Shown here one piece after another: positions 12,774-32,292 of a DNA stretch of 39,201 bases; position 1 is the stretch's first letter; every line of letters begins with the position of its first letter. The translations under genes were made by a program, and so were the position numbers. The notes under the pieces are model-generated. The model was not told where the DNA came from. It ran no database searches and saw only the letters and a list, made by a program, of their open reading frames with translations. The DNA comes from Candidatus Fermentibacteraceae bacterium (GTDB lineage Bacteria > Fermentibacterota > Fermentibacteria > Fermentibacterales > JCC-6): assembly GCA_029932015.1 (NCBI GenBank), contig JAOZQW010000001.1, positions 1 to 39,201 of the forward strand, written 5' to 3'.

Positions 12774-12797
12774 TGGGACCGGCAGAAGCCGGTCCCA
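12774..12797 (-). other. Intercistronic hairpin between TBDR-1 and exbB
   Basis: TGGGACCGGC-agaa-GCCGGTCCCA, 10-bp perfect stem. No clear U-tract follows on the minus strand. Confidence 0.5.
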
Positions 12798-12818
12798 CGG
12801 ACAGTTGTTCTTCTCAGG

Positions 12819-16164: not shown

Positions 16165-19011
16165 TCACCATTCGAGCCCGAGTCCGAAGGATATCGTTCG
16201 AGGTCTGCTGAAGGCGTACATGTTGTTCAGGGGGCCAGTGGGATCATGACCTGCCCCACCGCACTCATCCATTCCCATATCTGCATCGTACCACTCTACA
16301 TCGGCAATGAAGTCGACATTGTGACTGTTGAACAGGTTATCCACCTCGCACCAGGCATTCAGGGTCATGTCCCCGAGCCAGAAGGCTCTGCTTACTTTGA
16401 GGTCAGCTATCAACGTAGAGGGGTATCGCTCTCCGTTGATGACAGGCCGGGCGGTTCCCTGATTAGTCTGGCTGTAGGGGAATCCGCTGCCGTAGCGGCA
16501 TGACAGATGAGTATCGAGGCCCTCAAAAACGGGGACACCCGCTATCCGCAATCCCCTGCCTCTGGGCACCCTGTGGTTGAGTTCGATACTGACGGTATGC
16601 CGCTGGTCCCAGTCCAGATAGTGCTCACGGATCAGTGGTTCCCAACCCTCAGTTACCGTACGGTACCCCAGCAGAACGTTGGAGCTGCTTCCTTTTGCGA
16701 CTGAGTATGTGTAGCCGATGCTGCCGGAAAGGAAGGAATCAGCATACTTTCGGAGCAGGACATCGAACCCGGATGCATCTGCATAGTCGAGGTTGTCGTA
16801 TATGAAGAAGTCAGGCTCAGATCCACCGGATGAGTAAACCGGCCTTGTGTCAACAAGACCTGACATATCGCGGTAGAATGCAGTGATGTCGAAGTATGCA
16901 TCATTACCAAGCTCATGCCGCAGTCCCGCTTCATATGCGACCGTCACTTCGTGGGAAAGATCGGGATCACCAAGAACTGGTATCTCCCCGGGTTTGCTCG
17001 ACGGCTGTCCTCCGCCGTACATCAGATCGAGCCTTTGATGCCGACTGTAATGACAATACGAAACGTGCAATACACCCTGCTCACTCAGAATGTACGACAC
17101 TCCAAGTCTGGGGTTTAGCCTGAACTTGGGTGAACCGGTCAGAGAGTCAGCCAGGGTTGGTGGATAATCCGGCCCCGGATCGACCGGGCCGGATGGAGGG
17201 TCGATATCCTGATTCGGATCGAAGTAATCGAGCCGGGCGCCGATGTCCAGAACAACACCGTCCAGCCACATTCTGTCCCGCAGGTATAATGCCCCGGAGT
17301 TGGGAAATGCATGGTACCTGTTGAAATGTGCCGCACCTGCTGAGGGTACATCCACGCTGTAATGGAATACGTCAAAATACTTGAGCTCAATACCGGCCTT
17401 GAGCTGGTTCCTTCTGCTGATCATTGTAGTCAGATCGGTCCTGAGAGTTGATACAATACTCTCGGTCTCGCTCCAGGCATGCCGGCTGGTTCCAGCTCTA
17501 TAGAATCCCTCTTCATCCACTGAGCGCTGCGGATCGTAAGCCTGCCATTGCTCCTCTCCCCAGCCTTCCCCAAGCCACTCGGTATCGTACGGACCTTGGG
17601 GATCGTTCCGTATCCTGCGGTCGAAGGAGGTTCGATAGCTGTTGAGAGCAACATCGATATAAGTGACATCACTCAGTGTCTGCATGAAATTCAGCCCAAT
17701 GGCGGAATTCTCCCAGCTCCTGGTAGGAAGACCGTAGAGGATGTCCCGTCCCCAGGCCAGGGTGTCCCCATAGGCTGGCGAGAGGGAGTCGGTGTCGATG
17801 TAAGGCTCCTCGTACCTGCTCCAGTTCCAGAAGTCTCCGATACCGAACCAGCCTTCAGTCCTGTCCATTTTGAAATAGGTCAGACTGAACATTGTTCCAG
17901 AATAGGGTCTATATGTCAGCTTCACATTACCAGTGTACGAAGTGAGCCATTCATCGAAGCCGTAGCCGTACCTTCCATCCTCACCTCCCCCGGTCTGTCG
18001 GAATCCGCCTGACGCAAATACTCGAACATCACCGGGAATGTCTATGCCAATGGCCGGAAGGAGGTAATTCGCAATGGGCTCCGGTCCTCCAATGGAGACC
18101 TCGGCATTGAATCTGGCGTCCGAGAAGGGGCTCACATTGCTCCATCTCCAGCCGCTGTCAGGAGATGCTGGATCAAAGCCTCCCCAGTGAGAGTCGCTGG
18201 CAAGACCGAGGGCCTGCCAGTCATTTCCACCAATGTTTATCGAACCATGATATGAAGACCTGCCCTCTGGAGTAATGATATTGACTGCATCGGATTGAGC
18301 ACTACCGTACAATGTGTCAAATCCGTCACGGTGGAGCGAGATCCTGCTGATTGCGGACATCGGGATGTCGCTGCTGAAGAAACCGGTAGTCGGATCTGTA
18401 TGTTCAACACCATCGACTGTATATACAGCCTCCCCGGCTCTACTTCCCCGGAAATGGAGAGTGCTTCCAATTGCTGAAGCATCCCGCACACCCAGCCACT
18501 CAGTATATGGACTGTCGTGTCCGACCTCACCCCAGCGCTCACCGCAGTTGGTGACGCTCACCGTCCCTGCGATGAAGTCCTGAATACCGGCAACGGGCAG
18601 TGGGGTTATGTCTTCTGGACTCGAAACAATTACTGCATTGTCATTAATTAAAGTACTGCCTGAGACAACGATGCGAGTATCGCAGGCGACTTCCTCTTTG
18701 AGAAAGAAGTCAACTGACACAGTATCCCCCGCGAGTACATGTACAACAGGGGATGTTTCGGCTTCAAAACAGATCATAGCAGCCTGAAGTTCATATACGC
18801 CCTTGGGGAGGTTGATTATTATGTACTCACCATTGGCATCAGTCATTGCGCCGTACGAAGTCCCAATGACCATCACGGTAGCAGTGAACCGAGGTTCACC
18901 AGACTCATCCCATACATGCCCGACAATGGTGCCTGTATCGCCTGCGACTGCAATCGAGGTGGCCGACAGCAGAGTCATCAGTACGATTCCCGTTACGGCT
19001 CTGACACCCAT
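16165..19011 (-). CDS. TonB-dependent receptor with carboxypeptidase-regulatory-like domain (paralog 2)
   Basis: Collinear with paralog 1 over its whole length and ends GLGLEW. Preferred start is ATG 19011 (MGVRAVTGIVLMTLLSATSIAVA), 8 nt after GAAGGGA. ATG 19020 and TTG 19035 are alternatives. Confidence 0.85.
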   Translation of the reverse strand: MGVRAVTGIVLMTLLSATSIAVAGDTGTIVGHVWDESGEPRFTATVMVIGTSYGAMTDANGEYIIINLPKGVYELQAAMICFEAETSPVVHVLAGDTVSVDFFLKEEVACDTRIVVSGSTLINDNAVIVSSPEDITPLPVAGIQDFIAGTVSVTNCGERWGEVGHDSPYTEWLGVRDASAIGSTLHFRGSRAGEAVYTVDGVEHTDPTTGFFSSDIPMSAISRISLHRDGFDTLYGSAQSDAVNIITPEGRSSYHGSINIGGNDWQALGLASDSHWGGFDPASPDSGWRWSNVSPFSDARFNAEVSIGGPEPIANYLLPAIGIDIPGDVRVFASGGFRQTGGGEDGRYGYGFDEWLTSYTGNVKLTYRPYSGTMFSLTYFKMDRTEGWFGIGDFWNWSRYEEPYIDTDSLSPAYGDTLAWGRDILYGLPTRSWENSAIGLNFMQTLSDVTYIDVALNSYRTSFDRRIRNDPQGPYDTEWLGEGWGEEQWQAYDPQRSVDEEGFYRAGTSRHAWSETESIVSTLRTDLTTMISRRNQLKAGIELKYFDVFHYSVDVPSAGAAHFNRYHAFPNSGALYLRDRMWLDGVVLDIGARLDYFDPNQDIDPPSGPVDPGPDYPPTLADSLTGSPKFRLNPRLGVSYILSEQGVLHVSYCHYSRHQRLDLMYGGGQPSSKPGEIPVLGDPDLSHEVTVAYEAGLRHELGNDAYFDITAFYRDMSGLVDTRPVYSSGGSEPDFFIYDNLDYADASGFDVLLRKYADSFLSGSIGYTYSVAKGSSSNVLLGYRTVTEGWEPLIREHYLDWDQRHTVSIELNHRVPRGRGLRIAGVPVFEGLDTHLSCRYGSGFPYSQTNQGTARPVINGERYPSTLIADLKVSRAFWLGDMTLNAWCEVDNLFNSHNVDFIADVEWYDADMGMDECGGAGHDPTGPLNNMYAFSRPRTISFGLGLEW

Positions 19012-19058
19012 TTCAGCCATCCCTTCGGTCAGCAATTCAATTGATATAGATAATTGAG

Positions 19059-19086
19059 TATGTAGAGTGTACTACTTCGCAGTCAA
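19059..19086 (-). promoter_or_regulatory. Candidate sigma70-type promoter for the TBDR/Ton/T9SS-cargo block
   Basis: On the minus strand, TTGACT (19086-19081), a 16-nt spacer, then TACATA (19064-19059). It lies about 40-50 nt upstream of the TBDR-2 start. Confidence 0.3.
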
Positions 19087-19099
19087 CCGAAAAAAGGTG

Positions 19100-19124
19100 A
19101 AAATGGTGGGTGGCACCATTTAAT
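19100..19124. repeat. REP-like palindromic motif, copy 2 (AAAATGGTGGGTGGCACCATTTAAT)
   Basis: Same orientation and same 17-nt core as 439-455. AATGGTG-ggtgg-CACCATT forms a 7-bp stem. It sits between the upstream terminator and the candidate -35. Confidence 0.6.
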
Positions 19125-19160
19125 GGGGCGGGTCTTGGGGCAAGGCAAAGGATAAGGATA

Positions 19161-19189
19161 GGGGACATGCACCGCCGGTGCATGTCCCC
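19161..19189 (-). terminator. Terminator hairpin ending the 12-gene gcv-to-membrane-protein array
   Basis: GGGGACATGCACC-gcc-GGTGCATGTCCCC, 13-bp stem. On the minus strand it is followed by TATCCTTATCCTTT. It lies 24 nt after the stop codon that begins at 19214. Confidence 0.6.
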
Positions 19190-19213
19190 AATGGGCTAAG
19201 AGGCTTTGATCTG

Positions 19214-19873
19214 CTAGGCCCCTCCTCCTATCCCAAGTATCCTCGGGATGGTGGGGAGCCACTCGAACATGAGGAACTGAGACTGCCCGATAAGCAGACT
19301 GAGTCTGGCCATTATCGTGTATCCGAAGCTGGCACCGAAGGCTACCATCAGTATGGTGATGCCAAGGTTTGCGGTACCTCCGATAATCCCCGTATGCTCC
19401 TTCGAGAAGAAGAAGTAAACGAGACCGGATACGACACCGACCACCAGCACGAGGCTGCTGAACATCTCAAAAGCACTGCCAGCCGAGATGGAGATGATAC
19501 TTCCCTCCACCTGTGCAAGTGCATTCGTCTGGAAGACGCTGACCATGCCGAGTCCGGCACCAGCGCCGACGATCATGCCCAGGGCGAGCCTGGACAGTCC
19601 TGCGATCTTCGGGACTATCCTGGCCAGCATGAAGAAGGCGAAGATGCCAGGTATGACCCACACTATCTGGAAGCCGCCCTCCGCCGGGAACATGCGCTGC
19701 CACCAGTTGGGCTTGAGCACGTTCTCGATCGTGTAGATGACCCAGTAGCCTGCACTCATTCCTACGAAGAGGTGCTCGGCGAACTTGTAGAAGGGGTTAT
19801 CGCGGTACAGGAAACTGTAGAGCGAGAGCGATAGAAGAGCCCCTATCCATATACCCAGTATCTCCCAGTTCAT
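19214..19873 (-). CDS. Polytopic integral membrane protein, unknown function (membrane module gene 4)
   Basis: 219 aa with about 6 hydrophobic helices and no recognisable family motif. ATGA overlap with the upstream gene. Confidence 0.7.
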   Translation of the reverse strand: MNWEILGIWIGALLSLSLYSFLYRDNPFYKFAEHLFVGMSAGYWVIYTIENVLKPNWWQRMFPAEGGFQIVWVIPGIFAFFMLARIVPKIAGLSRLALGMIVGAGAGLGMVSVFQTNALAQVEGSIISISAGSAFEMFSSLVLVVGVVSGLVYFFFSKEHTGIIGGTANLGITILMVAFGASFGYTIMARLSLLIGQSQFLMFEWLPTIPRILGIGGGA

Positions 19874-20733
19874 TTCACACCTCCTTTCCGCTTCTTCTCA
19901 GCAAAATAGGCAACGTTACCCATCACTATCAGGAGCATTATCACCAGGTGCGCCACTGACTGCGGGGCCATTCCCGCAACAGCTCTTCCGCCCTCTGCCC
20001 CGACAGCGTCAGGGTGCTCGCGGACGAGAGTCTCGTAATCCGCTGCGCCCTTGAGGCCTCCGAGGAGGCCGACCAGCTGTCCCGTCCCGAGATAGGGATA
20101 GAACTGCGGGGCGCTGACAGCGGTACAGCCACCTCCGATAGGCACTCCGAATCGATCCCCAGCCATCATTATCCATGCGGGGATACCGGGGTCACCGGCG
20201 GAGAGCGAGAGGACCATATCGAAATCCTGCAGAGTGGAGTAAGCAGCAAGCATGGGGATCTCACTCCATGGCACATTGTCCTTGTCGGTGGGAAACACCG
20301 CCTGAATACCTGAACCGAGACGGACTATCATCACACCGCCGCCGGTCTTGTATCCGAGCATACACCAGTCCTCGTACTGGACCTTGCCGAGACTGTCTCC
20401 GACCGAGGACATGGCGTCCTGCCCGAGACTCGCCCCCATAGGCCACAGAGCCATTCCAACAACCTTGACGTCGTTCCTGAAGAGGTGCTGGAGCATTGCC
20501 ATTGCCATCGGCTGCAGCTCAGGCATCGTCGAAGGATCGTAGTCGAAACTCAGGAGAACGCTCGAACCAGCGGGGAGGGCTTCGACGTAGTCGAAAAGCG
20601 CTCTGCTGGGCTCGGCACCCACGGGATTCGGAAAAATCAGCCCGAGTGCCAGTGGGATGATCACGGAGAGGGCAATGAGAATGAAGATTATTCTCCTGTC
20701 CAGGTTGCCCATCTTCTCTATCATGCCGGCCAT
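19870..20733 (-). CDS. Bitopic membrane protein (N- and C-terminal TM helices flanking a ~220-aa soluble domain), unknown function (module gene 3)
   Basis: TM helices RIIFILIALSVIIPLALGLIF and VAHLVIMLLIVMGNVAYFA. The start overlaps the stop of the upstream gene (TGATG). Confidence 0.7.
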   Translation of the reverse strand: MAGMIEKMGNLDRRIIFILIALSVIIPLALGLIFPNPVGAEPSRALFDYVEALPAGSSVLLSFDYDPSTMPELQPMAMAMLQHLFRNDVKVVGMALWPMGASLGQDAMSSVGDSLGKVQYEDWCMLGYKTGGGVMIVRLGSGIQAVFPTDKDNVPWSEIPMLAAYSTLQDFDMVLSLSAGDPGIPAWIMMAGDRFGVPIGGGCTAVSAPQFYPYLGTGQLVGLLGGLKGAADYETLVREHPDAVGAEGGRAVAGMAPQSVAHLVIMLLIVMGNVAYFAEKKRKGGVK

Positions 20734-21356
20734 CAGTCCGTACCTCCAAGATAACTCCGCTCGATCCCGAAGATCATGCGGAGGGAGGTGGCGACCACGC
20801 CCATGGCGGCCCCGATCATCACCGCTCGCTGTCCAGCGGTGTTGGGAACGCTCATCAGCCAGACCTTGGCCAGAGGGATCTTATCCCAGATCATGGCGCC
20901 TATCGGCACCTGACCGAGCATGACGATGAAGGCCGAGGTGAGAAGCAGCGTCGCACGCCAGTTGGATGCCCTGAAGGCCCTGAAGGCGGCGGATGCCACG
21001 AAGAAGGCCAGCAGACTGAACATGGTGGCACCCATCGGAACTACAGCACTCTGGAACAGGTAGTCGAAAGGCATACCTTCGACCACTCCGTAGATGATGC
21101 CCGTGACGAGCATCATCAGGAAACCGATTATGGTGACCGGGCTGTATTTCCAGTTCTTCAGCTTGAGACGGATCTTCCTGAAGTGTACGTGGAGCAGATT
21201 CATCGCCCCGAGGAAGATTGCGGCCGAAGCCACTATCATGTACCATTCCTGCAGGTTGTCTCCGAGGAGCTTGAACGGCTCATGAGGTACAAAAAAGTTA
21301 AGCACCATTATCATGCCGGCCACGAATGTTATGGCCAGCGGTATCACTATTCTCAT
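20733..21356 (-). CDS. Polytopic integral membrane protein, unknown function (module gene 2)
   Basis: 207 aa with about 5-6 TM helices. GGAGG SD 5 nt upstream of ATG 21356. Confidence 0.7.
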   Translation of the reverse strand: MRIVIPLAITFVAGMIMVLNFFVPHEPFKLLGDNLQEWYMIVASAAIFLGAMNLLHVHFRKIRLKLKNWKYSPVTIIGFLMMLVTGIIYGVVEGMPFDYLFQSAVVPMGATMFSLLAFFVASAAFRAFRASNWRATLLLTSAFIVMLGQVPIGAMIWDKIPLAKVWLMSVPNTAGQRAVMIGAAMGVVATSLRMIFGIERSYLGGTD

Positions 21357-21365
21357 GCCGGCCTC

Positions 21366-22649
21366 CTAACTTACCGCGACCAGGCTGCGGAGGAAGTCCG
21401 CAACACTGCTCAATGGTGCCCAGAATTGACCTATCGTGGCAGCGATCACACCAAGGAGGATCAGGATGATGAAGAAGAGCTTACCGGCATCCTGCCCCTT
21501 GAGGCTTCCAAGGAGTTTTGGCTCTCTGGACAGGTATGCGCTGGCTGCAAAGAGCTCCTCCCCGATGAGTGTGTAGTCGCATGCGGCTACGAAGAAAGGT
21601 ATCTGACTGGGCATGGCGGTGCCGGCTATCTGGATAGCTCCTACGCTCCGGCCTGTCTCCGCGAGGATGAGGCTTTCCGCGTAGAAAGTACCCAGCATGA
21701 AGATGGCGGCAGGCTTCTCCCGCACCATAATACCGTCAACACCGGCTGCATACCCGAACTGGTCATCTGTAAGGTACTGGATATCCTCTCTGTTGAAGGC
21801 GTCGGGGCGTCCTGCCTGGAGGTAGGATTCCTTGACAACCTCCTGAGCCACACTCATCACGACGCTCCTGGCGGTCGGGACCATGAGTGCAGAACCGTAC
21901 TCCGCGGTCTTGATGGCTACTCTGCCGAGGATCACCATGCTCGCGATCGTCTGTATGTCATCCATATCCATGATGCCGGGGATGTATAGGACCGGCTTGC
22001 CCATTTCCGTAGCTCGTCCTACTGCATCGTCAACGGCGGCAAGTCCCGCGATCTCCCGGATGTACAGCTTCTTACCACGCTTGGCCGTCTCGATGTAGTA
22101 GATAATGATGAGGGAAAGTGCGGCGAGTATGATAAGCATAGCTACACGGCCGGAGTGGATCCACTGGGCAGAGGACGAAGCGTCAGCTTCATCAGAGACC
22201 GCTGCAGGGGTCCCGTCCGGTCTGAGTGATTCTATCCAGTAGCTGTACGAATCCCCATCGGAAACTGTGGTGTCAGTGTACCTTGTTGAAATACCCCCGA
22301 GAGTGGCGATCCTCTCCTCCACCCCGGAAGGACCGCGACGGATAACCGCAAGTGAATCGGGAACTTCATCCTTGATGTCGAAGTCCCATGCGAGACTCAC
22401 CGACCCGCCGGCATCGTTGGGGTGATCTGTGGCCTGGAGGTCGAACACCCTGTCGAGAGCCGCCACGCGGACGGTATTTGTCAGATGGGCCGGAGCGATG
22501 ACTACTTCTTCAGGACCGGACGGCCGCTCCTCCCCTCCGGTTTCCTCCTCAACTGCCGACTCTGGTCTCTCAGGCGGATCTACCCCCTGAGCTGCCACCG
22601 TGCCGACCGCAAGGAGGAGCAGCGCCAGCAGAACAGCCGTACGCCTCAT
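21366..22649 (-). CDS. Membrane protein: signal peptide, extracytoplasmic FN3/Ig-like domain, TM, ~230-aa domain, C-terminal TM; unknown function (module gene 1)
   Basis: MRRTAVLLALLLLAVGTVAAQG signal peptide. SVSLAWDF...YTDTTVSDGDSYSYWIESL is FN3-like. TM helices VAMLIILAALSLIIIYYI and LFFIILILLGVIAATIG. SD AGGGAGGGAG. Confidence 0.7.
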   Translation of the reverse strand: MRRTAVLLALLLLAVGTVAAQGVDPPERPESAVEEETGGEERPSGPEEVVIAPAHLTNTVRVAALDRVFDLQATDHPNDAGGSVSLAWDFDIKDEVPDSLAVIRRGPSGVEERIATLGGISTRYTDTTVSDGDSYSYWIESLRPDGTPAAVSDEADASSSAQWIHSGRVAMLIILAALSLIIIYYIETAKRGKKLYIREIAGLAAVDDAVGRATEMGKPVLYIPGIMDMDDIQTIASMVILGRVAIKTAEYGSALMVPTARSVVMSVAQEVVKESYLQAGRPDAFNREDIQYLTDDQFGYAAGVDGIMVREKPAAIFMLGTFYAESLILAETGRSVGAIQIAGTAMPSQIPFFVAACDYTLIGEELFAASAYLSREPKLLGSLKGQDAGKLFFIILILLGVIAATIGQFWAPLSSVADFLRSLVAVS

Positions 22650-22670
22650 GCTCCCTCCCTTCGAGAGGAC

Positions 22671-22715
22671 CCTGAGAAAGCGCCCCGGGCGGTCACCCGG
22701 GGCGCAGTTCTCAGG
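22671..22715 (-). other. Strong composite hairpin in the only sizeable gap of the 12-gene array
   Basis: CCTGAGAA-a-GCGCCCCGGG-cggtca-CCCGGGGCGC-ag-TTCTCAGG, 18 paired positions. On the minus strand the inner stem is followed by TTTCT. Confidence 0.55.
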
Positions 22716-22739
22716 TCCGATCAGTTGTTACTGTCATTC

Positions 22740-23864
22740 CTACTCTTCTATCAGCTCCACGTTGGCACGCGGAACCGTTGCTTTTTCGCCGTCCTCGAAT
22801 TCGACATCGAGAACTCTGACTTTCGCTTCAGAATCAAGGACCTGCAGCTCAGCTGGGAGTGCAAGAACTTTCCCGAGTCTGCCGAAGTACGGAGCCCTGA
22901 TACATCTAATTGGTGAACCGATATCCATGGCTCCAGCCTGCTTGTCCTCTGTACTGGAGGATACGATGTCCTCTCCGACAGGGATCACAACTTCCGGCCG
23001 CATGACACCGGCCCTGATCTGTGTAGCACCGTTGACGCTGGCGAGCATTCCCTTCCTGGCTTTCAGGAGGTCGAATGTCCCGTGAGCCATCGTCATCCTG
23101 CCGAAACCCTCGGTGAGCACGAGAGTTATACCCTTCTTCTCATGGCCGGTTATGGCCACACCGAGATCATATCCGAGGAACTCCTTGAGATCCTTGTCGT
23201 CGAACCCTCCAACCACGATGGCCTTCACACCGATGTCGATGGCCTTCCTGAGCGTGGCGCTGGAAACAAAGGAGCCTCCGAGGAGAACCTTGCCCTTGCA
23301 GGTATCATCGAGAAGGTCTGCGGTGAGTTCCTGTTCAGGGGATTCAACAATGACGTCAAGCTCGCCCCTGACCTCCCCACCGATGCCGAAGATGCCCTGG
23401 ACAAAGGTTGCTCTGGATTCGACCACAACGCCCTCATTGCCGAGTACTTCTACGACCGTGCCTTTGACATATGCATCTATCTCGACCGGTATCGGCGGCT
23501 CCCTCAGGACGGCCTGACCGGTTATCTCGTTGTAGCTCTCGAAGGTTCCTTCTATAGGTGATCTGACGGAATTCTTAAAAAGACCCCACAGCCCCTTTGT
23601 CTGACCAAGAACCTCGTCCTCCGCAATGGCATCACCCGGGGATTTGATGAGGATACTCGGGATGTCACTTGGTGGAAGACCGAGAACATTGGCGATATTC
23701 AGCATCTTGACGTTGCCGGGAAGTTCTGTCCTGGCAACGACGGATTCAGCGGTGACTTCCTGCCCCTTCTCGACGAGTGTCTCACCGGTCAGGGGAAGCC
23801 GTCTCTCTTTACGGACGATGGTAACATCTGCGACCCTCAGACCGGGTGTGTATGCGAACGCCAT
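22740..23864 (-). CDS. Uncharacterised 374-aa protein: N-terminal barrel-sandwich-hybrid (lipoyl-like) fold, central Rossmann-like segment, C-terminal KOW/SH3-like segment
   Basis: Start moved to ATG 23864 (MAFAYTPGLRVADVTIV...), 1 nt after the GlmL-like stop. The track's N-terminal extension overlaps that gene and is Arg/Ser-rich junk. Fold guesses come from sequence patterns only. Confidence 0.65.
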   Translation of the reverse strand: MAFAYTPGLRVADVTIVRKERRLPLTGETLVEKGQEVTAESVVARTELPGNVKMLNIANVLGLPPSDIPSILIKSPGDAIAEDEVLGQTKGLWGLFKNSVRSPIEGTFESYNEITGQAVLREPPIPVEIDAYVKGTVVEVLGNEGVVVESRATFVQGIFGIGGEVRGELDVIVESPEQELTADLLDDTCKGKVLLGGSFVSSATLRKAIDIGVKAIVVGGFDDKDLKEFLGYDLGVAITGHEKKGITLVLTEGFGRMTMAHGTFDLLKARKGMLASVNGATQIRAGVMRPEVVIPVGEDIVSSSTEDKQAGAMDIGSPIRCIRAPYFGRLGKVLALPAELQVLDSEAKVRVLDVEFEDGEKATVPRANVELIEE

Positions 23865-23865
23865 A

Positions 23866-25743
23866 CTACTCTTCCCCCCCCATGCTGAGGAAACGCTCAG
23901 GATATGTGTCCAGGGCCTTCGACCACTCCTGGAGCTTGGCCACACGGGTGGCCTCGTCCTCAGGAAGCTCGAACGGCCGACGGCCACGTCCATCGAGTAT
24001 CAGGCCAACTACCCCCCCCTCAAGCTCACCAGCCCACATCTCACCTAAACCGGCTCCTGCATCGATGTGCTTGGCGGGGACTATCTCCGCCTGCACCTTC
24101 TCACCTACTCCCAGAGGGATGAGCTCTATACGGTCGATCTCGATGGGGTGCTCCTCCAGCGAACCATCTGACCTGGTCATCTTCAGAGTCGCCAGAACTT
24201 TCGCCTTCTTTGCCGGACCGGTCGGGGCAACACATGTCCCGAGCTTGATCAGACAGTCCTTGTCGAATACTTCGGTAGCAGCTTTGGGATGCACTTCGGA
24301 GAGTACTCCGAGCTGCGGCATCATGAATATCGAGTCCACCGCTAGCATTGTGATACCCTCAGGAAGGAAAGCATCGATCAGCATGTGTGCGGCCTGGCAT
24401 CTTCTTGGAGCATGCGACAGGACCCCTCCTGAGCCGATCAGAAGATTCAGTCCCATCATGTCCACCAGAGTACCGCCGGACTGAGTCTGCTCGAATGCAT
24501 CTCCGATGGTCCGCTCCTGAGCCACTCCCTTGAGACCTGTCGCCAGTTCCCTGTGCTGGATAAGCGCCAGTCTCAGCGCTTCTCTTGCTATTGCCTGCTC
24601 TATTATGAGCTCCTCCAGCAACTGCGGTATCGTGGTAGGCCGTATCATCTTGTTCCTGATACGGTTCCTCAGATCGGCTTCATCCATCATGAACGGGACC
24701 CAGCGCATGACATTGTCGAGCCCTGCGCTGGCAAGAACGTTTGAAACGCTGTAGCTCATACCGAGATTGGCTGAGACCGTCCTGTTGAAAACGGGAGCAC
24801 CTTCACTGGTGAAAACGCTGAACACGTCAGTGGTAGCCCCACCGATATCAACGCCCATCACTTCGATCTCCTCGTTCTTCGCCACGGACTCTATGAGTTT
24901 ACCAACAGCTCCGGGAGTGGGCATGATGGGAAGCTGTTTCCACTCACCTTCAACAAAATGACCGGCCCAACTCATCAATCTTGCGTAGCCCGGAGCCTGC
25001 GCCATCACGTGCTCCATGAACAGCTCGTGTATCTCATCTCTGGCCGGTCCGAGGTTCTCCCTCTCCAGCACAGGTCTGAGGTTGTCAACGACCTTGAGTT
25101 CCATGGAGTCAGACAGCTCACCTGCCACAGCATCCGTTGCATCCTTGTTGCCTGCATAGATGACCGGCAGCTTGTAGCCTACCCCGAACCGGGGCTTTGG
25201 ATCAGCGGCCCTGACCACCTCGGCCAGTTCAATAACATGGTCGATCGTTCCACCGTCGATGCCGCCGGAAAGAAGGATCATATCCGGCCTGAGCCTTCTG
25301 ATGTCGGCGACCTTCTCGTGGGGAAGCCTTCCATCGTTTGAGGCCACGACGTCCATTACAATAGCTCCTGCCCCGAGCGCGGCCCTCTGGGCGCTCTCTC
25401 CCGTCATGGACTTCACGACACCTGCAACGGTCATCTGAAGTCCTCCTCCGGCGGATGAGGTCGACATGTATATGTCAACGCCTTTGTCTCCGTCGGCCGA
25501 GACGTTCACGCCATCCTTGGCATCATTAAGCAGTTCAATACCTTCGAGATCCTCGATCTCTCCTACTGCGTTCAGCACACCCTTGGTTACATCCTCAGCC
25601 GGAGCCTCGACCGTGGTCGGGGCCTCTCCTCTGCGAATGAGACGGAACTCACCATCCCGCTTCTCGATGAGAATGGCCTTGGTGGTGGTGCTGCCGCAGT
25701 CAGTCGCCAGTATCCTGGTGATCTCCTTGCTGGCCACCGCCAT
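23866..25743 (-). CDS. GlmL/MutL-like ASKHA-superfamily ATPase (glutamate-mutase-accessory-like), 625 aa
   Basis: N-terminal ILATDCGSTTTKAILI (phosphate-1) and MGVDIGGATTDVFSV (phosphate-2) motifs typical of the GlmL/EutA-type ASKHA family. It is about 150 aa longer than classical GlmL. AAGGAGG SD. Confidence 0.7.
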   Translation of the reverse strand: MAVASKEITRILATDCGSTTTKAILIEKRDGEFRLIRRGEAPTTVEAPAEDVTKGVLNAVGEIEDLEGIELLNDAKDGVNVSADGDKGVDIYMSTSSAGGGLQMTVAGVVKSMTGESAQRAALGAGAIVMDVVASNDGRLPHEKVADIRRLRPDMILLSGGIDGGTIDHVIELAEVVRAADPKPRFGVGYKLPVIYAGNKDATDAVAGELSDSMELKVVDNLRPVLERENLGPARDEIHELFMEHVMAQAPGYARLMSWAGHFVEGEWKQLPIMPTPGAVGKLIESVAKNEEIEVMGVDIGGATTDVFSVFTSEGAPVFNRTVSANLGMSYSVSNVLASAGLDNVMRWVPFMMDEADLRNRIRNKMIRPTTIPQLLEELIIEQAIAREALRLALIQHRELATGLKGVAQERTIGDAFEQTQSGGTLVDMMGLNLLIGSGGVLSHAPRRCQAAHMLIDAFLPEGITMLAVDSIFMMPQLGVLSEVHPKAATEVFDKDCLIKLGTCVAPTGPAKKAKVLATLKMTRSDGSLEEHPIEIDRIELIPLGVGEKVQAEIVPAKHIDAGAGLGEMWAGELEGGVVGLILDGRGRRPFELPEDEATRVAKLQEWSKALDTYPERFLSMGGEE

Positions 25744-26167
25744 CTACCTCCTTCTTATTGACTGAGCCTCTGCCCCTGAAAAGGCGGCTCCACAGGGAAC
25801 CCCTCTCCTTCCGCAATGCCTTACGGGATGCCTTCTGCTCCCGTTTGAGTGTTGCGTCACGGGCATTTTCCTCTTCTATGGCCAGGGTGAGTTTTTCGAT
25901 GTTCTCCCTGTCCTCTATCATTCGTACAAATCTGTAGTACTCACCGGAGCTGACAACCAGTGAAACCACCGGATTGGCAAATATCAGAAGCTGGTTACCG
26001 AGAAATGATAACGGTTTTATCGATTCCAGGAAAATGATGGCAGGTACAGTAAGCTGTCTCTGCACAATGCCTTTAGCCAGCTTATCAATAAGCGATGTGA
26101 AGTCCTCTGTACCGTCGACATCGGTCAGGCTACTGATCCCCGGCGGTATGTGCCCTGATGTATCCAA
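25700..26167 (-). CDS. Small (about 155 aa) membrane-associated protein, unknown function
   Basis: Hydrophobic core LTVPAIIFLESIKPLSFLGNQLLIFANPVVSLVV and a basic C-terminal tail. No ATG is available after the upstream stop. I propose the TTG start at 26167 behind GAGAGGAAG. It overlaps the neighbouring genes by 38 and 44 nt. Confidence 0.5.
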   Translation of the reverse strand: MDTSGHIPPGISSLTDVDGTEDFTSLIDKLAKGIVQRQLTVPAIIFLESIKPLSFLGNQLLIFANPVVSLVVSSGEYYRFVRMIEDRENIEKLTLAIEEENARDATLKREQKASRKALRKERGSLWSRLFRGRGSVNKKEVDGGGQQGDHQDTGD

Positions 26168-26609
26168 GGACTTCCTCTCTGTTGCCGGAGAACTGCACTG
26201 ACAGCCCTCTGAACTTTGCCAGCCTTGTTGGCTGAGGGAATGGACTGAGAAGGACTCCGTACCTGTCAGGCACAATACTCCTGACCTGCTTCCATGTCTT
26301 GCGTTCAACGCCGAAGACTGATTTCTTGCTCACACCTTCAGCATCCATTCTGAACCGGCATGGCATGAAGTAGCTCCACATCGAGAGCAGAAGAAGCAGG
26401 ATCCCGATGAGCCCCCACCAGGCATTTTCACCGGTAAGGGCAGCTACCGTTCCGGCCAGCAATATCATGAAGACCAGAAGCAGTGTCGCAAGCGGTCTCT
26501 CTCTGGCCGGATGGGAAACCCACTCCAGGAGTTGAATTCCGGACCCTTCGGTCCCGCTAAGCTCTGCTGCTCTCTCCTCAGTCAGCTTACTCCTCCACCC
26601 TCGGTTCAA
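26130..26609 (-). CDS. Two-TM membrane protein with bacterial PH (bPH/YdbS-like) domain, tentative
   Basis: Two TM helices (LATLLLVFMILLAGTVAAL and WGLIGILLLLLSMWSYF), then a domain of about 80 aa (FRMDAEGVSKKSVFGVERKTWKQVRSIV...). The start is uncertain: TTG at 26609, with no ATG before the first TM helix. Confidence 0.5.
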   Translation of the reverse strand: MNRGWRSKLTEERAAELSGTEGSGIQLLEWVSHPARERPLATLLLVFMILLAGTVAALTGENAWWGLIGILLLLLSMWSYFMPCRFRMDAEGVSKKSVFGVERKTWKQVRSIVPDRYGVLLSPFPQPTRLAKFRGLSVQFSGNREEVLGYIRAHTAGDQ

Positions 26610-28035
26610 CTATGCAGAGTTCCTTGACCGCTGCCACCTCGTCGAGCCTGAGTACGGGTGTATTGACGGGCGCATCGGTCACAAGGTGCGGCTTCTCTTC
26701 AACCTCACGGGCTATTGATTCCATTGCTGCGATGAAGCTGTCCAGGTCCTCGATGCCCTCCGTCTCGGTAGGCTCGATCATCATCGCTTCATGGACGATG
26801 AGCGGAAAGTAGATCGTTGGCGCGTGGAAGCCGTAATCAAGGAGTCTCTTGGCAATATCAAGGGTTTTTACACCCTTCTCAAGCTGCCTGTCTCCCGAGA
26901 GTACGAATTCGTGCATACACGGACCGTCATCAAAGGGCAGTTCAAAGATCCCCTTCAGCTTCTCCTTGAGATAATTGGCGTTGATCAGAGCGTTCTCGGT
27001 GACTTCGCACAGGCCATCAGCACCGAGCGTCCTGATATAGGCATATGCCCTGTACAGAACTCCCACGTTCCCGTGGAACGCAAGCAGCCGTCCAAAGGAT
27101 CGATCAGGTTTTTGAAGGAAGTACCTGCCATCGGAGTCCTTCGAAACGATAGAGTCCGGCAGGTACCTCTCGAGGTCGGAGATGCAGGCGACCGGTCCGG
27201 AACCGGGACCTCCTCCTCCGTGCGGTGTACCGAATGTCTTGTGTAAATTCAGATGACAGACATCGAAGCCCATATCACCAGGTCTGGCTACTCCAAGAAG
27301 GGCATTCATATTGGCGCCGTCCATGTAGTTGAGACCTCCGGCCTCATGTACGATGGAGGTCAGCTCACCTATTTTTGACTCAAACAGGCCAAGGGTGTTC
27401 GGATTGGTCAGCATGAAAGCAGCAGTGTTGGGGCCGACCTTTCGCCTGAGATCCTCCGGGTCAACCTCTCCCCGGTCGTTTGAGCTGACACCGATAACCT
27501 TGCATCCGGCGAGCGTGGAGGTCGCTGGATTCGTACCATGTGCCGAATCCGGCATCAAAACCTCATTGCGATGTCCCTCTCCCCGGTCCCTGTGGTAGCT
27601 TGTTATGAGCATAAGGCCACAGAACTCGCCCTGCGCACCTGCCGCCGGCTGGAGCGTAATAGCTTCGAAGCCGGTTATCTCGCAGAGGTACCCGGAGAGC
27701 CTGTGCATGAGTTCCAGGGTTCCCTGTGCCATCGCATCGGGAGAGAGCGGATGAAGCCCGGCAAGCCCGGGCATCCTGGCTATATCCTCGTTCTGTCTGG
27801 GATTGTACTTCATCGTACATGAACCAAGAGGGTACATTCCCTTATCAACATGATAATTGGCATTGCTCAGCTCGATGAAGTGCCTCATCACCTGGCCCTC
27901 TGTAACTTCGGGAAGACCGATACTACCGGACTCCCTCTCCAGACCCTCGGGCAGCTCTGCGGACGGTGGTACATCCAGAGCAGGGAGCGAAACGCCCATT
28001 CTGCCACTGCTGCTCATGCTGAATACGGTCTTCAT
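26587..28035 (-). CDS. gcvPB: Glycine dehydrogenase (aminomethyl-transferring) subunit 2
   Basis: 482 aa with the PLP-lysine motif CHLNLHKTFGTPHGGGGPG. ATGA overlap with gcvPA. Confidence 0.95.
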   Translation of the reverse strand: MKTVFSMSSSGRMGVSLPALDVPPSAELPEGLERESGSIGLPEVTEGQVMRHFIELSNANYHVDKGMYPLGSCTMKYNPRQNEDIARMPGLAGLHPLSPDAMAQGTLELMHRLSGYLCEITGFEAITLQPAAGAQGEFCGLMLITSYHRDRGEGHRNEVLMPDSAHGTNPATSTLAGCKVIGVSSNDRGEVDPEDLRRKVGPNTAAFMLTNPNTLGLFESKIGELTSIVHEAGGLNYMDGANMNALLGVARPGDMGFDVCHLNLHKTFGTPHGGGGPGSGPVACISDLERYLPDSIVSKDSDGRYFLQKPDRSFGRLLAFHGNVGVLYRAYAYIRTLGADGLCEVTENALINANYLKEKLKGIFELPFDDGPCMHEFVLSGDRQLEKGVKTLDIAKRLLDYGFHAPTIYFPLIVHEAMMIEPTETEGIEDLDSFIAAMESIAREVEEKPHLVTDAPVNTPVLRLDEVAAVKELCIVEPRVEE

Positions 28036-29387
28036 CGGGACACCTCCACGTCGCAGATGGATGCGACCGCGTTAATGTAGGCGTCCATCTCCTCTTTTGT
28101 CCGCTTCTCTGTCGCAGTTATGAGCATAACGCCCTCTCCCAGCTCCTGAAGCGGGAGCCCTGCAAGAATGGACATTTCTGCGAGCTTCTGCAGGATTTCA
28201 ACTGAAGAGACGGGGAAGCGGAGAGTGAATTCCCTGAAGAACGGTGTGTTTCCGAACACAGGCTCGACACCTTCTATTCCAATCAGACCGGAATAGAGGT
28301 AATGACTCTTCTGGAAACACTGGGTGGATATCTCCCTGAAGCCCTGCTCACCCGTAAGAGAGAGATACACAGCATTGGCGAGAGCCATCAGTGCCTGGTT
28401 GGTGCAGATGTTGCTGGTCGCCTTCTCTCTTCTGATGTGCTGCTCCCTGGTCTGAAGTGTCAGGACATATCCCGTCTCACCGGCTCGGTCCACAGTACGC
28501 CCGATGATCCTTCCGGGCATCTTGCGGGCATACTTGAGTTTCGAGGACATGAATCCCGCAAAGGGGCCGCCATACGAGAGGGGAAGCCCCATGCTCTGAC
28601 CCTCGCCTACAACTATGTCCGCACCAGCATCTCCAGGTGAACGCAAGAGTGGAAGAGCAACAGGATCTGCTGCTGCTATCAGAAGCCCACCTGCTGAATG
28701 TATGAGTTCAGCCATTGGTTCAATATCCTGTATGAGGCCGAAATAATCTGGGTACTGGACGAGAAGTGCTGCTGCACCACCCTCGGTCAGAGAGGATGCT
28801 GCATCAAGGTCCAGAAGTCCGTTTTCCAGGAAAGGGATCTCGTTGATCTCGAACCCCTCACGATCGAGGTATGTCCTGATGACCCGAGCCCATCGCGGAT
28901 TCATAGAACCAGCAATAAGTATCCTGTTCTTCCTCGTAACACGGAGAGCCATCAGGCAGGCTTCAGCTGCGGCAGTCGCACCATCGTAGACCGAGGCGTT
29001 GGCCATCTCCATGCCTGTCAGGCGACTGATCATTGTCTGGTACTCGAATATCGCGTGGAGGGTTCCCTGACTGACTTCGGCCTGGTACGGGGTGTAGGCA
29101 GTGAAGAACTCGCTCCGGAGAAGAATGTGATCGATGGCTGAGGGTACGAAATGATCATAGGCTCCGCCGCCGAGGAAGCAGATATGGTCCGCGCCGGTAT
29201 CGCGGGAAGTAATGACTGCCATATCACGTTGCAGCTCAAGCTCGGAGAGCGCGGGAGGGAGAGATAGTTCACCCTTGAGCATGTACTCATCCGGTATAGG
29301 TTTCAGGAGATCCTCAAAGGAATCCACACCGATCTCGTCGAGCATTCGACGACGATGCTCTTCCCGGTTAGGGATGTACCTGCTCAT
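28032..29387 (-). CDS. gcvPA: Glycine dehydrogenase (aminomethyl-transferring) subunit 1
   Basis: 451 aa with TAYTPYQAEVSQGTLHAIFEYQTMI, the conserved P-protein alpha-subunit motif. Starts 2 nt after the gcvH stop. Confidence 0.95.
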   Translation of the reverse strand: MSRYIPNREEHRRRMLDEIGVDSFEDLLKPIPDEYMLKGELSLPPALSELELQRDMAVITSRDTGADHICFLGGGAYDHFVPSAIDHILLRSEFFTAYTPYQAEVSQGTLHAIFEYQTMISRLTGMEMANASVYDGATAAAEACLMALRVTRKNRILIAGSMNPRWARVIRTYLDREGFEINEIPFLENGLLDLDAASSLTEGGAAALLVQYPDYFGLIQDIEPMAELIHSAGGLLIAAADPVALPLLRSPGDAGADIVVGEGQSMGLPLSYGGPFAGFMSSKLKYARKMPGRIIGRTVDRAGETGYVLTLQTREQHIRREKATSNICTNQALMALANAVYLSLTGEQGFREISTQCFQKSHYLYSGLIGIEGVEPVFGNTPFFREFTLRFPVSSVEILQKLAEMSILAGLPLQELGEGVMLITATEKRTKEEMDAYINAVASICDVEVSR

Positions 29388-29389
29388 TC

Positions 29390-29773
29390 TTACTCACCGA
29401 TGAAGGTTGCGTACTCGGCAGCTGTCTTGAGCTTGTCAAAACCGGAGGAGTCATCGGTGGAGACGACTATCAGCCAGCCTTTACCGTAGGCATCCTCGTT
29501 GATAAGCGCAGGTTCATCCTCGAGAGTCTCGTTCACTCTGACTATTTTGCCGTCGAATGGAGCGTAGAAGTCCTCTGCGGTTTTTACAGCTTCTAAAGAT
29601 CCAAAGACGTCACCGGCCGCGAATTCCTCGAGAGCCGGGAATTCAACCATTACTATCTCACCCATCTGATCCTGGGCGTAGTCAGTGAGTCCCATCATGT
29701 ACTCTCCGCCGCCAAGGCTCTTCACCCATTCATGGGTCTCAGTGTAATGAAGCTCCTCAGGTATGCTCGCCAT
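29390..29773 (-). CDS. gcvH: Glycine cleavage system H protein
   Basis: YTETHEWVK...GSLEAVKTAEDFYAPFDG contains the lipoyl-lysine motif. Start moved to ATG 29773 behind GGGAGGAA. Confidence 0.9.
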   Translation of the reverse strand: MASIPEELHYTETHEWVKSLGGGEYMMGLTDYAQDQMGEIVMVEFPALEEFAAGDVFGSLEAVKTAEDFYAPFDGKIVRVNETLEDEPALINEDAYGKGWLIVVSTDDSSGFDKLKTAAEYATFIGE

Positions 29774-29839
29774 GCTGTTTCCTCCCATGTGATATCAGTG
29801 ACTGACAGTTGTGACACCCTGCAAGGGTGTCATGGTTTA

Positions 29840-30937
29840 TTACTTTCGGCTTCCATCCTTGTAGAAAGGCAGCTTGACCGTACTGACCGGCACTCGCCGA
29901 CCTCTGACCTCGGCCTCGAGATCAGTTCCCGATTTATGGAAACCTCTCTCCACAATTGCGAGACAGACACCATGACCGAGTGCAGGAGCCAGGGAACCGC
30001 TGGTGACAATACCAACCTTGCGGTCGCCATCGTACAGCTCGGCGCCGTGGCGCGGGAAGCCTTTACCTGTGACCTTGAGGCCGACGATGTACCTTGCCGG
30101 TTTATCCCTCTTCTGACGGCTCATGACCTCACGGCCTATGAAATCCTTATCAGTCTTCAGCTTGACGACCCAGCCGAGTTTTGCCTCTATTGGTGTCGTG
30201 GTGTGGTCGATATCGCTGCCATAGAGTACATAGCCGACCTCGAGCCGGAGCGTATCTCTTGCACCGAGACCAACCGGTTTTATACCGAATTCGTCTCCAG
30301 CTTCCATGACCGCTGCCCAGACATCCGGGGCATCTTCCGATTTTATGTAGATCTCGAAACCGTCCTCACCCGTATAGCCGGTTCTGGCTATCAGTGCTAT
30401 CTTGCCGGCAAATGTACCCATCACATGGGCGTAGTAGTCAATCTCATCCAGATCTGCATCTGTGAGCTTCGCAGCTACTTTCTGGGCATCGGGACCCTGT
30501 ATGGCCACCAGAGCGGTTTCATCGCTCTCATTGGTCAACTCGATGCTGTACCCTGCAGTATGGCTGTTCACCCACGCCCAGTCCTTCTCGATATTCGAGG
30601 CGTTGACAACCATGAGGTACTCATTCGTGCCGATGTGGTAGACGATCAGATCATCGACTATCCCGCCATCAGGATAACACATGGTGGAGTAGAAGGCTTT
30701 ACCGGGAGGAACGTCCGAGTCGTTCGTCAGAATGAAGTCCAGGAAGCGGCCGGCGTCGGGGCCCTTGACCCTGAATTCACCCATATGGGAGAGGTCGAAT
30801 ACACCGACATTATTCCGTACAGCATTGTGCTCCTCCTTTACGGAGGAGTACTTTATTGGCATTATGTAACCGGCAAAAGATTCCATCCTGCCGCCCAGAG
30901 CGACATGTATGTCGTGAAGCGAGGTCTTCTTGTCCAT
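29840..30937 (-). CDS. gcvT: Aminomethyltransferase (glycine cleavage T protein)
   Basis: 365 aa, MDKKTSLHDIHVALGGRMESFAGYIMPIKYSS...VGVFDLSHMGEFRVKG, a typical GcvT N-terminus. AGGAGAAGGG SD. Confidence 0.95.
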   Translation of the reverse strand: MDKKTSLHDIHVALGGRMESFAGYIMPIKYSSVKEEHNAVRNNVGVFDLSHMGEFRVKGPDAGRFLDFILTNDSDVPPGKAFYSTMCYPDGGIVDDLIVYHIGTNEYLMVVNASNIEKDWAWVNSHTAGYSIELTNESDETALVAIQGPDAQKVAAKLTDADLDEIDYYAHVMGTFAGKIALIARTGYTGEDGFEIYIKSEDAPDVWAAVMEAGDEFGIKPVGLGARDTLRLEVGYVLYGSDIDHTTTPIEAKLGWVVKLKTDKDFIGREVMSRQKRDKPARYIVGLKVTGKGFPRHGAELYDGDRKVGIVTSGSLAPALGHGVCLAIVERGFHKSGTDLEAEVRGRRVPVSTVKLPFYKDGSRK

Positions 30938-31141
30938 TGACCCTTCTCCTGTGTGCTGGTGATAACGGGGAAACTACGAGAATATACGACATGGAATTTA
31001 CCGGAATTGGAAAGAAAATGCAATGATGAGCGCTCCCGTTCCAGCGTATCTGAGACTGGAGGAAATGCAGCAGTGATATTAGGTAATCCGACCCACAGGC
31101 GTATCACCCGCAGGGCTCGCAAATCGCGTCTGGAAGGGGGA

Positions 31142-31651
31142 GTGGACATCCTCCGGGCGGAGGCGTGCGCCAGACACTGGTTTCTTGGGATGGGAGTGCC
31201 GTGCTGGAGCGATCCTTTTCCCCCCGGAGAGGCAGGCCGATACGGACTGCTGTTCCAGGGAGCAAGAAGGGCTCTCGTCCTCCCGGAGGAGGGTCCTGCC
31301 GCTGAGTTGTCTTTCGATGGGATAATGAAGGCGAAGTGCGATTACCTTGTCTCCGTAAGACTCGATGGAGAGAGAGAAGGAATCCCAACAGGTTTCCTGT
31401 ACTGGTTCGACCTCGATGCAGAGGAAGGGATTGATCGTAATATCAGAACCTCCACCCTCCTGCTTCGCAGGATGACGGACTTCCCTGAACTCATGAATGC
31501 ACCTCAGTGTTTCAGACGAGCTTTCCTCTATGGCTCTCTCATGCTGCTTCTCAGGGGTGAGCCTGCAGTGCCCGCTATTCTGACCCGTGATTATGTTCAG
31601 ACCACTATGAAGCCGATGACTCAAGATTATTCGAAAGGACATTCCGGATGA
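31142..31651 (+). CDS. Hypothetical protein (start uncertain: GTG 31142 or ATG 31190)
   Basis: The plus-strand ORF ends in an ATGA overlap with the next plus-strand gene, and its composition is more protein-like than the antisense 187-aa ORF. The N-terminal third of the track ORF (30953-31141) was discarded as the divergent promoter region. Confidence 0.45.
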   Translation: MDILRAEACARHWFLGMGVPCWSDPFPPGEAGRYGLLFQGARRALVLPEEGPAAELSFDGIMKAKCDYLVSVRLDGEREGIPTGFLYWFDLDAEEGIDRNIRTSTLLLRRMTDFPELMNAPQCFRRAFLYGSLMLLLRGEPAVPAILTRDYVQTTMKPMTQDYSKGHSG

Positions 31652-32250: not shown

Positions 32251-32292
32251 TCCGAACCGGAAAGCTCTTGAAGAGTCTGAGGAGTCTGAGAT

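Follow-up and report, generated by a model that had tools for sequence, protein, structure and literature searches.

A glycine cleavage operon continuing into a widespread, uncharacterised ATPase and membrane-protein module in Fermentibacterota and other bacterial phyla

Here we describe a twelve-gene array from a metagenome-assembled genome (MAG) of Candidatus Fermentibacteraceae bacterium (2.7 Mb in 548 contigs), in which a glycine cleavage (gcv) operon runs directly into eight further genes. The window, that is, the whole stretch of DNA analysed, is 39,201 nt of contig JAOZQW010000001.1 (C371 in our numbering), and the array extends from position 30937 down to 19214. The best-supported reading of our data is that this array is a composite of a canonical operon, gcvT-gcvH-gcvPA-gcvPB, and a widespread, strongly conserved and uncharacterised ATPase-plus-membrane module, whose genes we number g5 to g12. 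On the same reading, the join of gcvPB to g5/g6-g7-g8 is an old, selectively maintained neighbourhood in several phyla of the Fibrobacterota-Chlorobiota-Bacteroidota (FCB) group, no local accident, and is strongest at gcvPB-g6-g7-g8. An old and maintained join of this kind favours real regulatory or physiological coupling over chance or a lineage-specific fusion, and sequence comparison makes a regulatory or functional link between the module and glycine cleavage likely. The explanation as a whole, a composite array with an old maintained join and a coupled ATPase-membrane module, is on balance probably correct.

The first-pass annotation of this DNA had claimed twelve co-directional genes, joined by overlaps or by gaps of 9 nt or less with two exceptions, and reading of the sequence bears out both points, with twelve minus-strand open reading frames (ORFs) following one another without interruption. 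A spacer of 51 nt separates gcvT from gcvH (66 nt if the second Met is the gcvH start), gcvH and gcvPA are 2 nt apart, and gcvPA overlaps gcvPB by 4 nt. The next junction, between gcvPB and g5, is also an overlap, as the sole in-frame ATG/GTG/TTG start of g5 sits within gcvPB, the alternative being a non-canonical codon immediately 3' of gcvPB. Overlaps again connect g5 to g6 and g6 to g7, followed by gaps of 1 nt (g7/g8), 90 nt (g8/g9) and 9 nt (g9/g10), and by overlaps of 1 nt (g10/g11) and 4 nt (g11/g12). The annotation was also right that no terminator-like structure follows gcvPB, the fold of 26560–26640 having a z-score of +1.15. The arrangement is no assembly artefact, because the identical gene order recurs in dozens of independent assemblies.

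Among 70 Fermentibacterota genomes from 14 genera, 65 carry an orthologous g7. In all 58 of these that are resolvable, gcvPB lies upstream of g7 on the same contig and strand, without a single counter-example to this adjacency; the other seven of the 65 are contig-end cases. Of the 58 genomes, 56 have 800–870 nt between the two genes; the remaining two have 982 and 1683 nt. The complete order gcvT-H-PA-PB-5-6-7-8-9-12 was also found in Eisenbacteria and several further MAGs, and the order gcvPB-6-7-8 in WOR-3 and TA06; overall, the join of gcvPB to the module is seen in at least four bacterial phyla. For WOR-3 we took an even sample of 61 genomes, 53 of which have both gcvPB and g7. Of these, 33 carry gcvPB immediately 5' of g7 (at 274–425 nt in 32 and 1263 nt in one), and another three have it no further than 3.5 kb away. 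WOR-3 and TA06 have kept their sole gcvPB before g6-g7-g8, with gcvPA on another contig; in WOR-3, gcvPA directly precedes gcvPB in only 8 of 52 genomes and is clearly elsewhere in at least 24, with 20 cases left unplaced. Such a mostly non-adjacent placement of gcvPA and gcvPB is unusual for subunits of one enzyme.

A second gene of lipoyl metabolism recurs next to the module. In Eisenbacteria-type loci, a lipoate-protein ligase gene (PF21948) directly follows g12 in eight of nine cases by Pfam, and in the ninth by tblastn, leaving the module bracketed by gcv and lplA. The lplA genes (PF21948/PF03099) directly after g12 are at loci L112, L113, L119, L122, L124, L142, L163 and L164; at locus L108 the gene is placed between gcvPB and g6 (8848–9540), and at L111 directly after g7 (11798–12328). 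The genome studied here has an lplA homologue at the end of a small contig (C483). The idea that the module imports lipoate for LplA, as auxotrophy would demand, is unsupported, the lipoyl synthase LipA being present here and in 39 of 41 relatives. The earlier hint of a functional link is thus backed by comparative genomics, in the 58 of 58 Fermentibacterota, in Eisenbacteria, in TA06, in 33 of 53 WOR-3 genomes and in the bracketing by gcv and lplA. Two of its other statements have to be revised, since what was called "not a standard arrangement" is the standard one in these phyla, and a "lineage-specific operon fusion" is too narrow a description of a join shared by Fermentibacterota, Eisenbacteria, TA06 and WOR-3.

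The history of the join is less simple than its distribution. On the g7 tree, the gcv-linked state requires at least six changes, with weak deep nodes that leave gain not separable from loss, and an approximately unbiased (AU) test disfavours placing all gcv-linked g7 sequences in one clade (p = 0.03). A single origin of the gcv-linked state is accordingly disfavoured by the state changes and the AU test, with the weakness of the deep nodes to be borne in mind.

Several observations weigh against a specific link to glycine cleavage. Synteny was examined by tblastn at 80 loci found with g9 and 80 loci found with a Bacillota g7. The set of g6-g7-g8 and g9-g12 occurs not only in Fermentibacterota, Eisenbacteria, WOR-3, TA06 and Zixibacteria, but also in Marinimicrobia/Fidelibacterota, Latescibacterota, Gemmatimonadota, Sumerlaeota, Edwardsbacteria and Riflebacteria, and further in Wallbacteria, Muiribacteria, Synergistia, Chloroflexota, Bacillota and others, in an order that varies by lineage (5-6-7-8-9-12, 9-12-6-7-8 or 7-8-6-9-12). 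No gcv gene was found within the loci of Riflebacteria, Wallbacteria, Muiribacteria, Synergistia, Bacillota and Chloroflexota, nor within those of Marinimicrobia, Zixibacteria, Sumerlaeota, Latescibacterota and Gemmatimonadota. In at least ten phyla a long distance separates the module from gcvPB (about 200 kb in one complete chromosome, for instance), and even among WOR-3 the two are separate in 17–20 of the 53 genomes. All 20 genomes with an unlinked module that we tested have gcvPB elsewhere; the module therefore does not depend on an adjoining gcv operon. To the question whether the module always adjoins gcv, the answer is thus divided: it does in Fermentibacterota, Eisenbacteria, TA06 and 33 of 53 WOR-3 genomes, but it lies away from gcv in ten or more other phyla.

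The neighbours of unlinked modules also share no common theme in a Pfam tally of 85 upstream and 84 downstream neighbours. Upstream we found CdsA in eight cases, parts of Opp-type ATP-binding cassette (ABC) systems, TldD/PmbA and M20 peptidases; downstream Wzz, patatin and restriction-modification methylases. A common metabolic partner of the unlinked modules was rejected on these heterogeneous tallies. In addition, searches of the module proteins by family, fold and profile returned no family, fold or motif that would point to a substrate, and a neighbourhood may be conserved although its genes have no biochemical connection.

The remaining points on this side concern the 90-nt gap between g8 and g9. 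It contains a GC-rich intercistronic hairpin (22671–22715, minus strand) with a perfect 11-bp GC stem within a longer helix, and the spacer folds at −51.4 kcal/mol (z −6.6). The tail of the hairpin, TTTCTCAG, has a short U-tract, with fewer than five U residues in the 8 nt after the stem (at least five being the criterion for a terminator), and the structure is absent from the listing of the terminator scan. The position of the hairpin is kept in about 12 Fermentibacterota loci whose sequences differ; outside Fermentibacterota it is not consistently present. Sister lineages hold 1–7.5 kb of unrelated genes at this very site, some of them on the opposite strand, so the two halves can be expressed separately, and the g8/g9 hairpin could be a genuine terminator. 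With a conserved strong hairpin and sister-lineage inserts at the same place, a single 12-gene transcript is uncertain. Only about 21 nt, including the ribosome-binding site, separate the hairpin from the g9 start codon, which leaves no room for a promoter, and from the sequence g9-g12 most likely depend on read-through here. By the same comparison, the part welded to gcv is g5/g6-g7-g8, and not the membrane cassette g9-g12.

The presumed end of the array is a hairpin after g12 (19161–19189, minus strand), with a 13-bp stem and −27.5 kcal/mol. The first-pass annotation took this as the terminator of the array; the hairpin is real, but the one in the 90-nt gap is far stronger. Beyond it, a promoter-like TTGACT-18-CATACT at 19086–19057 stands ahead of a TonB-dependent receptor gene. 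Directly 3' of the array (9989–19035, minus strand) are two paralogous TonB-dependent receptors with CarboxypepD_reg (956 and 924 aa), followed by ExbB, two ExbD and TonB. Nearly all loci of Fermentibacterota and of the Eisenbacteria type have a TonB-dependent receptor after the cassette, the latter with lplA in between.

The four gcv genes themselves are ordinary. gcvT (29840–30937, minus strand, as are all genes of the array) encodes an aminomethyltransferase of 365 aa with the folate-binding and C-terminal barrel domains expected of a T-protein (PF01571, 6.1e-96; PF08669, 9.5e-21). gcvH (29390–29788; possible start at Met6) encodes the lipoyl carrier H-protein of 132 aa (TIGR00527, 124.8 bits against a cut-off of 115.85; NF002270, 142.6 bits). 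The alpha and beta subunits of the P-protein are encoded by gcvPA (28032–29387, 451 aa; NF001696, 584.5 bits against a cut-off of 364) and by gcvPB (26587–28035, 482 aa; Pfam matches PF21478, 5.4e-29, and PF02347, 3.1e-10), the latter being the sole gcvPB copy in the genome. The L-protein, dihydrolipoamide dehydrogenase, is encoded on contig C441 (TIGR01350, 465.7 bits against a cut-off of 408.8), and the presence of this proper lipoamide dehydrogenase rules out the module as a stand-in for a missing L-protein. All four proteins of the array pass family tests, like those of the two-subunit operons of Bacillus and Thermus, and as is common in such systems the L-protein gene is elsewhere. Unlike in those operons, we found no glycine riboswitch (RF00504) 5' of gcvT, and no Rfam match at E ≤ 1 across 18500–32500; also, gcvPB is not the last gene here but overlaps the first of eight more.

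The annotation had described these as eight unknown genes. Six of them indeed have no family, but two match Pfam, g7 to PF13941 (1.4e-122) and g9 to DUF6754/PF20539 (1.2e-121); neither family has a characterised function in such a context. The central gene, g7 (23866–25743), encodes a GlmL/MutL-family ATPase of 625 aa with the actin fold of the acetate and sugar kinase/Hsp70/actin (ASKHA) superfamily. Its match covers positions 1–450 of the 450 in the PF13941 profile. The protein scores below the equivalog cut-offs for GlmL (NF040745, 220.9 against 475 bits) and Or-4 (NF040744, 205 against 600 bits), and below the TIGR01319 subfamily cut-off (162.3 against 204.05 bits). In an alignment of 117 homologues from about 20 phyla, 243 of the 625 positions (39%) are at least 95% identical. 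The phosphate-1 (DCGSTTTK), phosphate-2 (DIGGATTD) and GSGG motifs are invariant, leaving the ASKHA nucleotide motifs intact. Matches of g7 to MreB-like_C in Pfam are weak and below threshold. No mutase gene was found in the array or in about 170 related loci, among which the search was confined, no genome-wide search for glmE having been made.

The partner of g7 is g8 (22740–23864), a soluble protein of 374 aa. Its AlphaFold2 (AF2) model (mean pLDDT, the model's per-residue confidence score, 83.5) begins with a beta region resembling a barrel-sandwich, continues with an alpha/beta domain and ends in a KOW/SH3-like barrel. It has no family match, and a Foldseek search with the model retrieved PDB folds for the C-terminal KOW-like barrel only. 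Relatives of g8, a family of at least 8000 sequence clusters, show weak matches to RnfC_N/NqrA_N (barrel-sandwich) and Biotin_lipoyl; read by eye, g8 showed no conserved lipoyl-lysine-type motif. A marginal profile match to RraA (E = 0.049), which we take to be a swivel-fold protein, would agree with a swivel-type alpha/beta domain in g8.

A paralogous g7-g8 pair in the same genome is fused into a single ORF of 1091 aa (contig C219, locus L093, 12731–16006, minus strand; PF13941, 8e-95, and a weak NqrA_N match), which argues that g7 and g8 act together. The fused gene divergently adjoins a histidine ammonia-lyase gene (PF00221, 1e-154), as it does in 5 of 20 relatives sampled. That the fused paralogue always stands beside an amino-acid lyase was rejected, the lyase neighbour being confined to a sub-lineage and DUF6754 cassettes flanking the paralogue elsewhere. 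In many Fermentibacterota and WOR-3 genomes, a single stop (TAG or TAA) interrupts the read-through frame around g7, the open frame then measuring about 1000–1070 aa. By this evidence, g7 and g8 seem to share a frame divided by one stop codon in those lineages, an arrangement that would be compatible with occasional read-through or with a path to the fused paralogue.

Upstream of g7 are two small genes, both with uncertain starts. g5 (26130–26609, if started at the TTG at 26609 inside gcvPB) has two predicted transmembrane (TM) helices (hydropathy peaks at residues 40–58 and 66–84) and a C-terminal domain, and matches no family at E < 0.01. It is kept after gcvPB in Fermentibacterota and Eisenbacteria and absent in WOR-3 and TA06. 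g6 (25700–26167) overlaps g5 and g7, by hydropathy has a charged tail and a segment that is amphipathic or hydrophobic, and matches no family; it is the gene immediately 5' of g7 in every phylum sampled.

The membrane cassette starts with g9 (21366–22649, 427 aa), built of a signal peptide, an Fn3-like ectodomain, a TM helix, the DUF6754 domain and a second TM helix. The DUF6754 match covers residues 160–410 at 405.2 bits, against a gathering score of 27. In the AF2 model of g9, residues 68–158 form a confident Fn3 domain that matches Fn3 folds in the PDB (Foldseek), and nothing in the PDB matches the DUF6754 part by fold or by profile. Between homologues the DUF6754 domain, roughly 200 aa, is highly conserved, whereas the ectodomain varies. 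g10 (20733–21356, 207 aa) and g12 (19214–19873, 219 aa) are polytopic membrane proteins with about six TM helices each by hydropathy, and g11 (19870–20733, 287 aa) has, by the same measure, a domain of about 220 aa between two TM helices. g12 has no family match, g11 has neither a family nor a PDB relative by profile, and g10 has no family above cut-off and likewise no PDB relative by profile. Comparison of g7-g11 with PDB sequences by phmmer and profile searches returned nothing significant. g5-g12 contain no ABC_tran or permease family of an ABC- or ECF-type (energy-coupling factor) transporter. A defence system was ruled out, with no PADLOC family matching g5-g12 at E ≤ 0.01 and the genes occurring almost throughout the phylum in syntenic order.

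There are more cassettes than ATPase sets. DUF6754 cassettes are present in 2–5 copies per genome, and the genome studied here has three, with two ATPase sets, the second being the fused g7-g8 on C219. WOR-3 genomes have one ATPase set and 2–5 cassettes, and 53 of the 61 hold both g6-g8 and membrane cassettes. At locus L062, one g8 is followed by three tandem cassettes. The other two cassettes of the present genome are in tandem on contig C117 (locus L094, 1–6485), one of them complete (9-10-11-12), with both outer copies cut by the contig ends.

While the identity of the genes, their junctions, the g8/g9 hairpin, the conserved neighbourhood, the fused g7-g8 paralogue and the copy numbers are direct observations, we infer co-transcription, ATP hydrolysis, an interaction of g7/g8 with the cassette and a physiological role. 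Transcription would start upstream of gcvT and proceed through overlapping, translationally coupled junctions at least to g8, such that the ATPase set would be produced whenever the glycine-cleavage enzymes are. The g8/g9 hairpin may act as an attenuator or as a stabiliser of the upstream mRNA, with g9-g12 expressed by read-through at a lower level. The small proteins g5 and g6 would tether the g7-g8 ATPase pair to the membrane, where the pair could act on the cassette via the cytoplasmic DUF6754 domain. Since the genome has three cassettes and two ATPase sets, g7-g8 would probably serve its other cassettes too. With low confidence, we suggest that the module drives a membrane process at the expense of ATP, nutrient uptake being the likeliest, and that this process is regulated together with amino-acid and glycine catabolism. 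In a stronger version of this proposal, g6-g7-g8 would be dedicated to the beta subunit of glycine decarboxylase and would tie the glycine-cleavage or glycine-synthase reaction to the four-protein cassettes, as a new membrane machine driven by an actin-fold ATPase in the service of a central pathway of amino-acid and one-carbon metabolism; possible actions of such a machine would be substrate delivery, removal or supply of CO2 or ammonium, or upkeep of the P-protein at the membrane. We regard this version as quite unlikely.

The join could also be a case of genomic hitch-hiking, in which a module unrelated to glycine cleavage was inserted once behind gcvPB in an ancestor of the FCB group and has persisted there because an overlapping, translationally coupled junction does not come apart easily and because a constitutive housekeeping promoter suits the module. 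A parallel would be group II ECF transporters, whose energising genes lie beside ribosomal-protein genes. The occurrence of the module without gcv in ten or more phyla, with gcvPB elsewhere in 20 of 20 such genomes, the loss of the link in about a third of WOR-3 genomes and the overlap at the gcvPB/g5 junction all agree with this explanation, and the weak deep nodes of the g7 tree leave one ancient join with several losses possible. However, the adjacency outlived the break-up of the gcv operon in WOR-3 and TA06, where gcvPB stayed with g6-g8 and parted from gcvPA; in other lineages a second gene of the lipoyl/glycine-cleavage system, lplA, is found beside or inside the module; and the AU test disfavours a single gcv-linked g7 clade. 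We consider hitch-hiking a doubtful, if credible, account of the array.

Two further explanations assign the module a direct biochemical task. In one, g6-g7-g8 would use ATP to act as a chaperone or reactivase-like factor on the P-protein, which depends on pyridoxal phosphate (PLP), by analogy with GlmL, EutA and DdrAB of B12 enzymes, and the barrel-sandwich domain of g8 would dock at the H-protein site. The membership of g7 in the GlmL family and the lipoyl/biotinyl-like region of g8, with its weak RnfC_N/NqrA_N/Biotin_lipoyl matches, fit this proposal, as does the choice of partner: it is the gene for the PLP-bearing subunit, gcvPB, that stays linked, including where gcvPA, gcvT and gcvH have other locations. 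Yet g6-g8 co-occur with cassettes in nearly every genome (53 of 61 in WOR-3), cassettes flank the fused paralogue, g5 and g6 resemble membrane anchors, many phyla have the module without linkage to gcv, and g8 shows no lipoyl-lysine-type motif by eye. We regard enzyme maintenance as very unlikely. In the other explanation, the cassette and ATPase would form a specific transporter that imports glycine or glycine-containing peptides, or moves NH4+ or CO2/HCO3−. Transporter genes commonly travel with gcv operons; in this genome and in relatives, genes for two TonB-dependent receptors and for ExbB-ExbD-ExbD-TonB come next after the array; unlinked modules have peptidases and oligopeptide ABC components among their neighbours; and a variable g9 ectodomain beside a conserved DUF6754 domain is as expected of a specificity element. 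Set against this, no likeness to any transporter family or fold was found, no actin-fold ATPase is known to drive a transporter, several paralogous cassettes with Fn3 ectodomains are ill-suited to small inorganic solutes, and the heterogeneous neighbour tallies include CdsA, Wzz and patatin as well. We judge transport of this kind unlikely.

Two further features lie at the 5' side of the array. The gcvT/gcvH spacer (29789–29839, minus strand) contains a 9-bp hairpin (minimum free energy −17.8 kcal/mol, z −2.9). The region 5' of gcvT (30938–31078 and the stretch next to it) holds two overlapping candidate ORFs on opposite strands, 31079–31642 (minus, 187 aa) and 30953–31651 (plus, 232 aa), neither of which has a Pfam match.

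The module matches no described system. GlmL/MutL, an accessory protein of B12-dependent glutamate mutase, and Or-4 of ornithine degradation are the relatives of g7, which matches PF13941 end to end and keeps the ASKHA motifs. It differs from both in falling far below their equivalog cut-offs and in being about 165 aa longer; the array has no mutase gene, and the invariable neighbours of g7 are g6 and g8, usually together with membrane cassettes. Reactivases of radical B12 enzymes (DdrAB/PduGH, EutA) pair an actin-fold ATPase with a second protein, and the pair of g7 and g8 is alike in this respect; here, in contrast, there is no B12 enzyme, the conserved neighbour is a subunit of a PLP enzyme, and the pair is tied to membrane proteins. 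In group II ECF transporters, one shared energising module serves several scattered membrane components. By analogy, ATPase sets are fewer than cassettes here, and cassettes are found beside the ATPase set or elsewhere; the ATPase, however, has an actin fold and is not a P-loop ABC ATPase, the cassettes comprise four proteins, and no sequence or fold similarity was found. Finally, in PilM-PilN, FtsA and MreB-MreC-MreD, actin-fold proteins dock on bitopic membrane partners. The analogy is that an ASKHA protein is encoded with small membrane-anchored and polytopic partners, but g7 belongs to the GlmL/hydantoinase branch, outside the cytoskeletal families.

The module has no characterised member and none with a solved structure, and no paper in the library searched deals with DUF6754 or PF13941, nor does any treat GlmL alongside glycine cleavage. 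The weld to gcvPB, and to lplA in some lineages, is the first contextual handle on what the module does. If the ATPase energises the cassettes, the module would represent a previously undescribed type of primary membrane machine, one powered by an actin-fold ATPase. If the link is merely regulatory, the database label 'glutamate mutase accessory protein' would still be corrected for thousands of genes.

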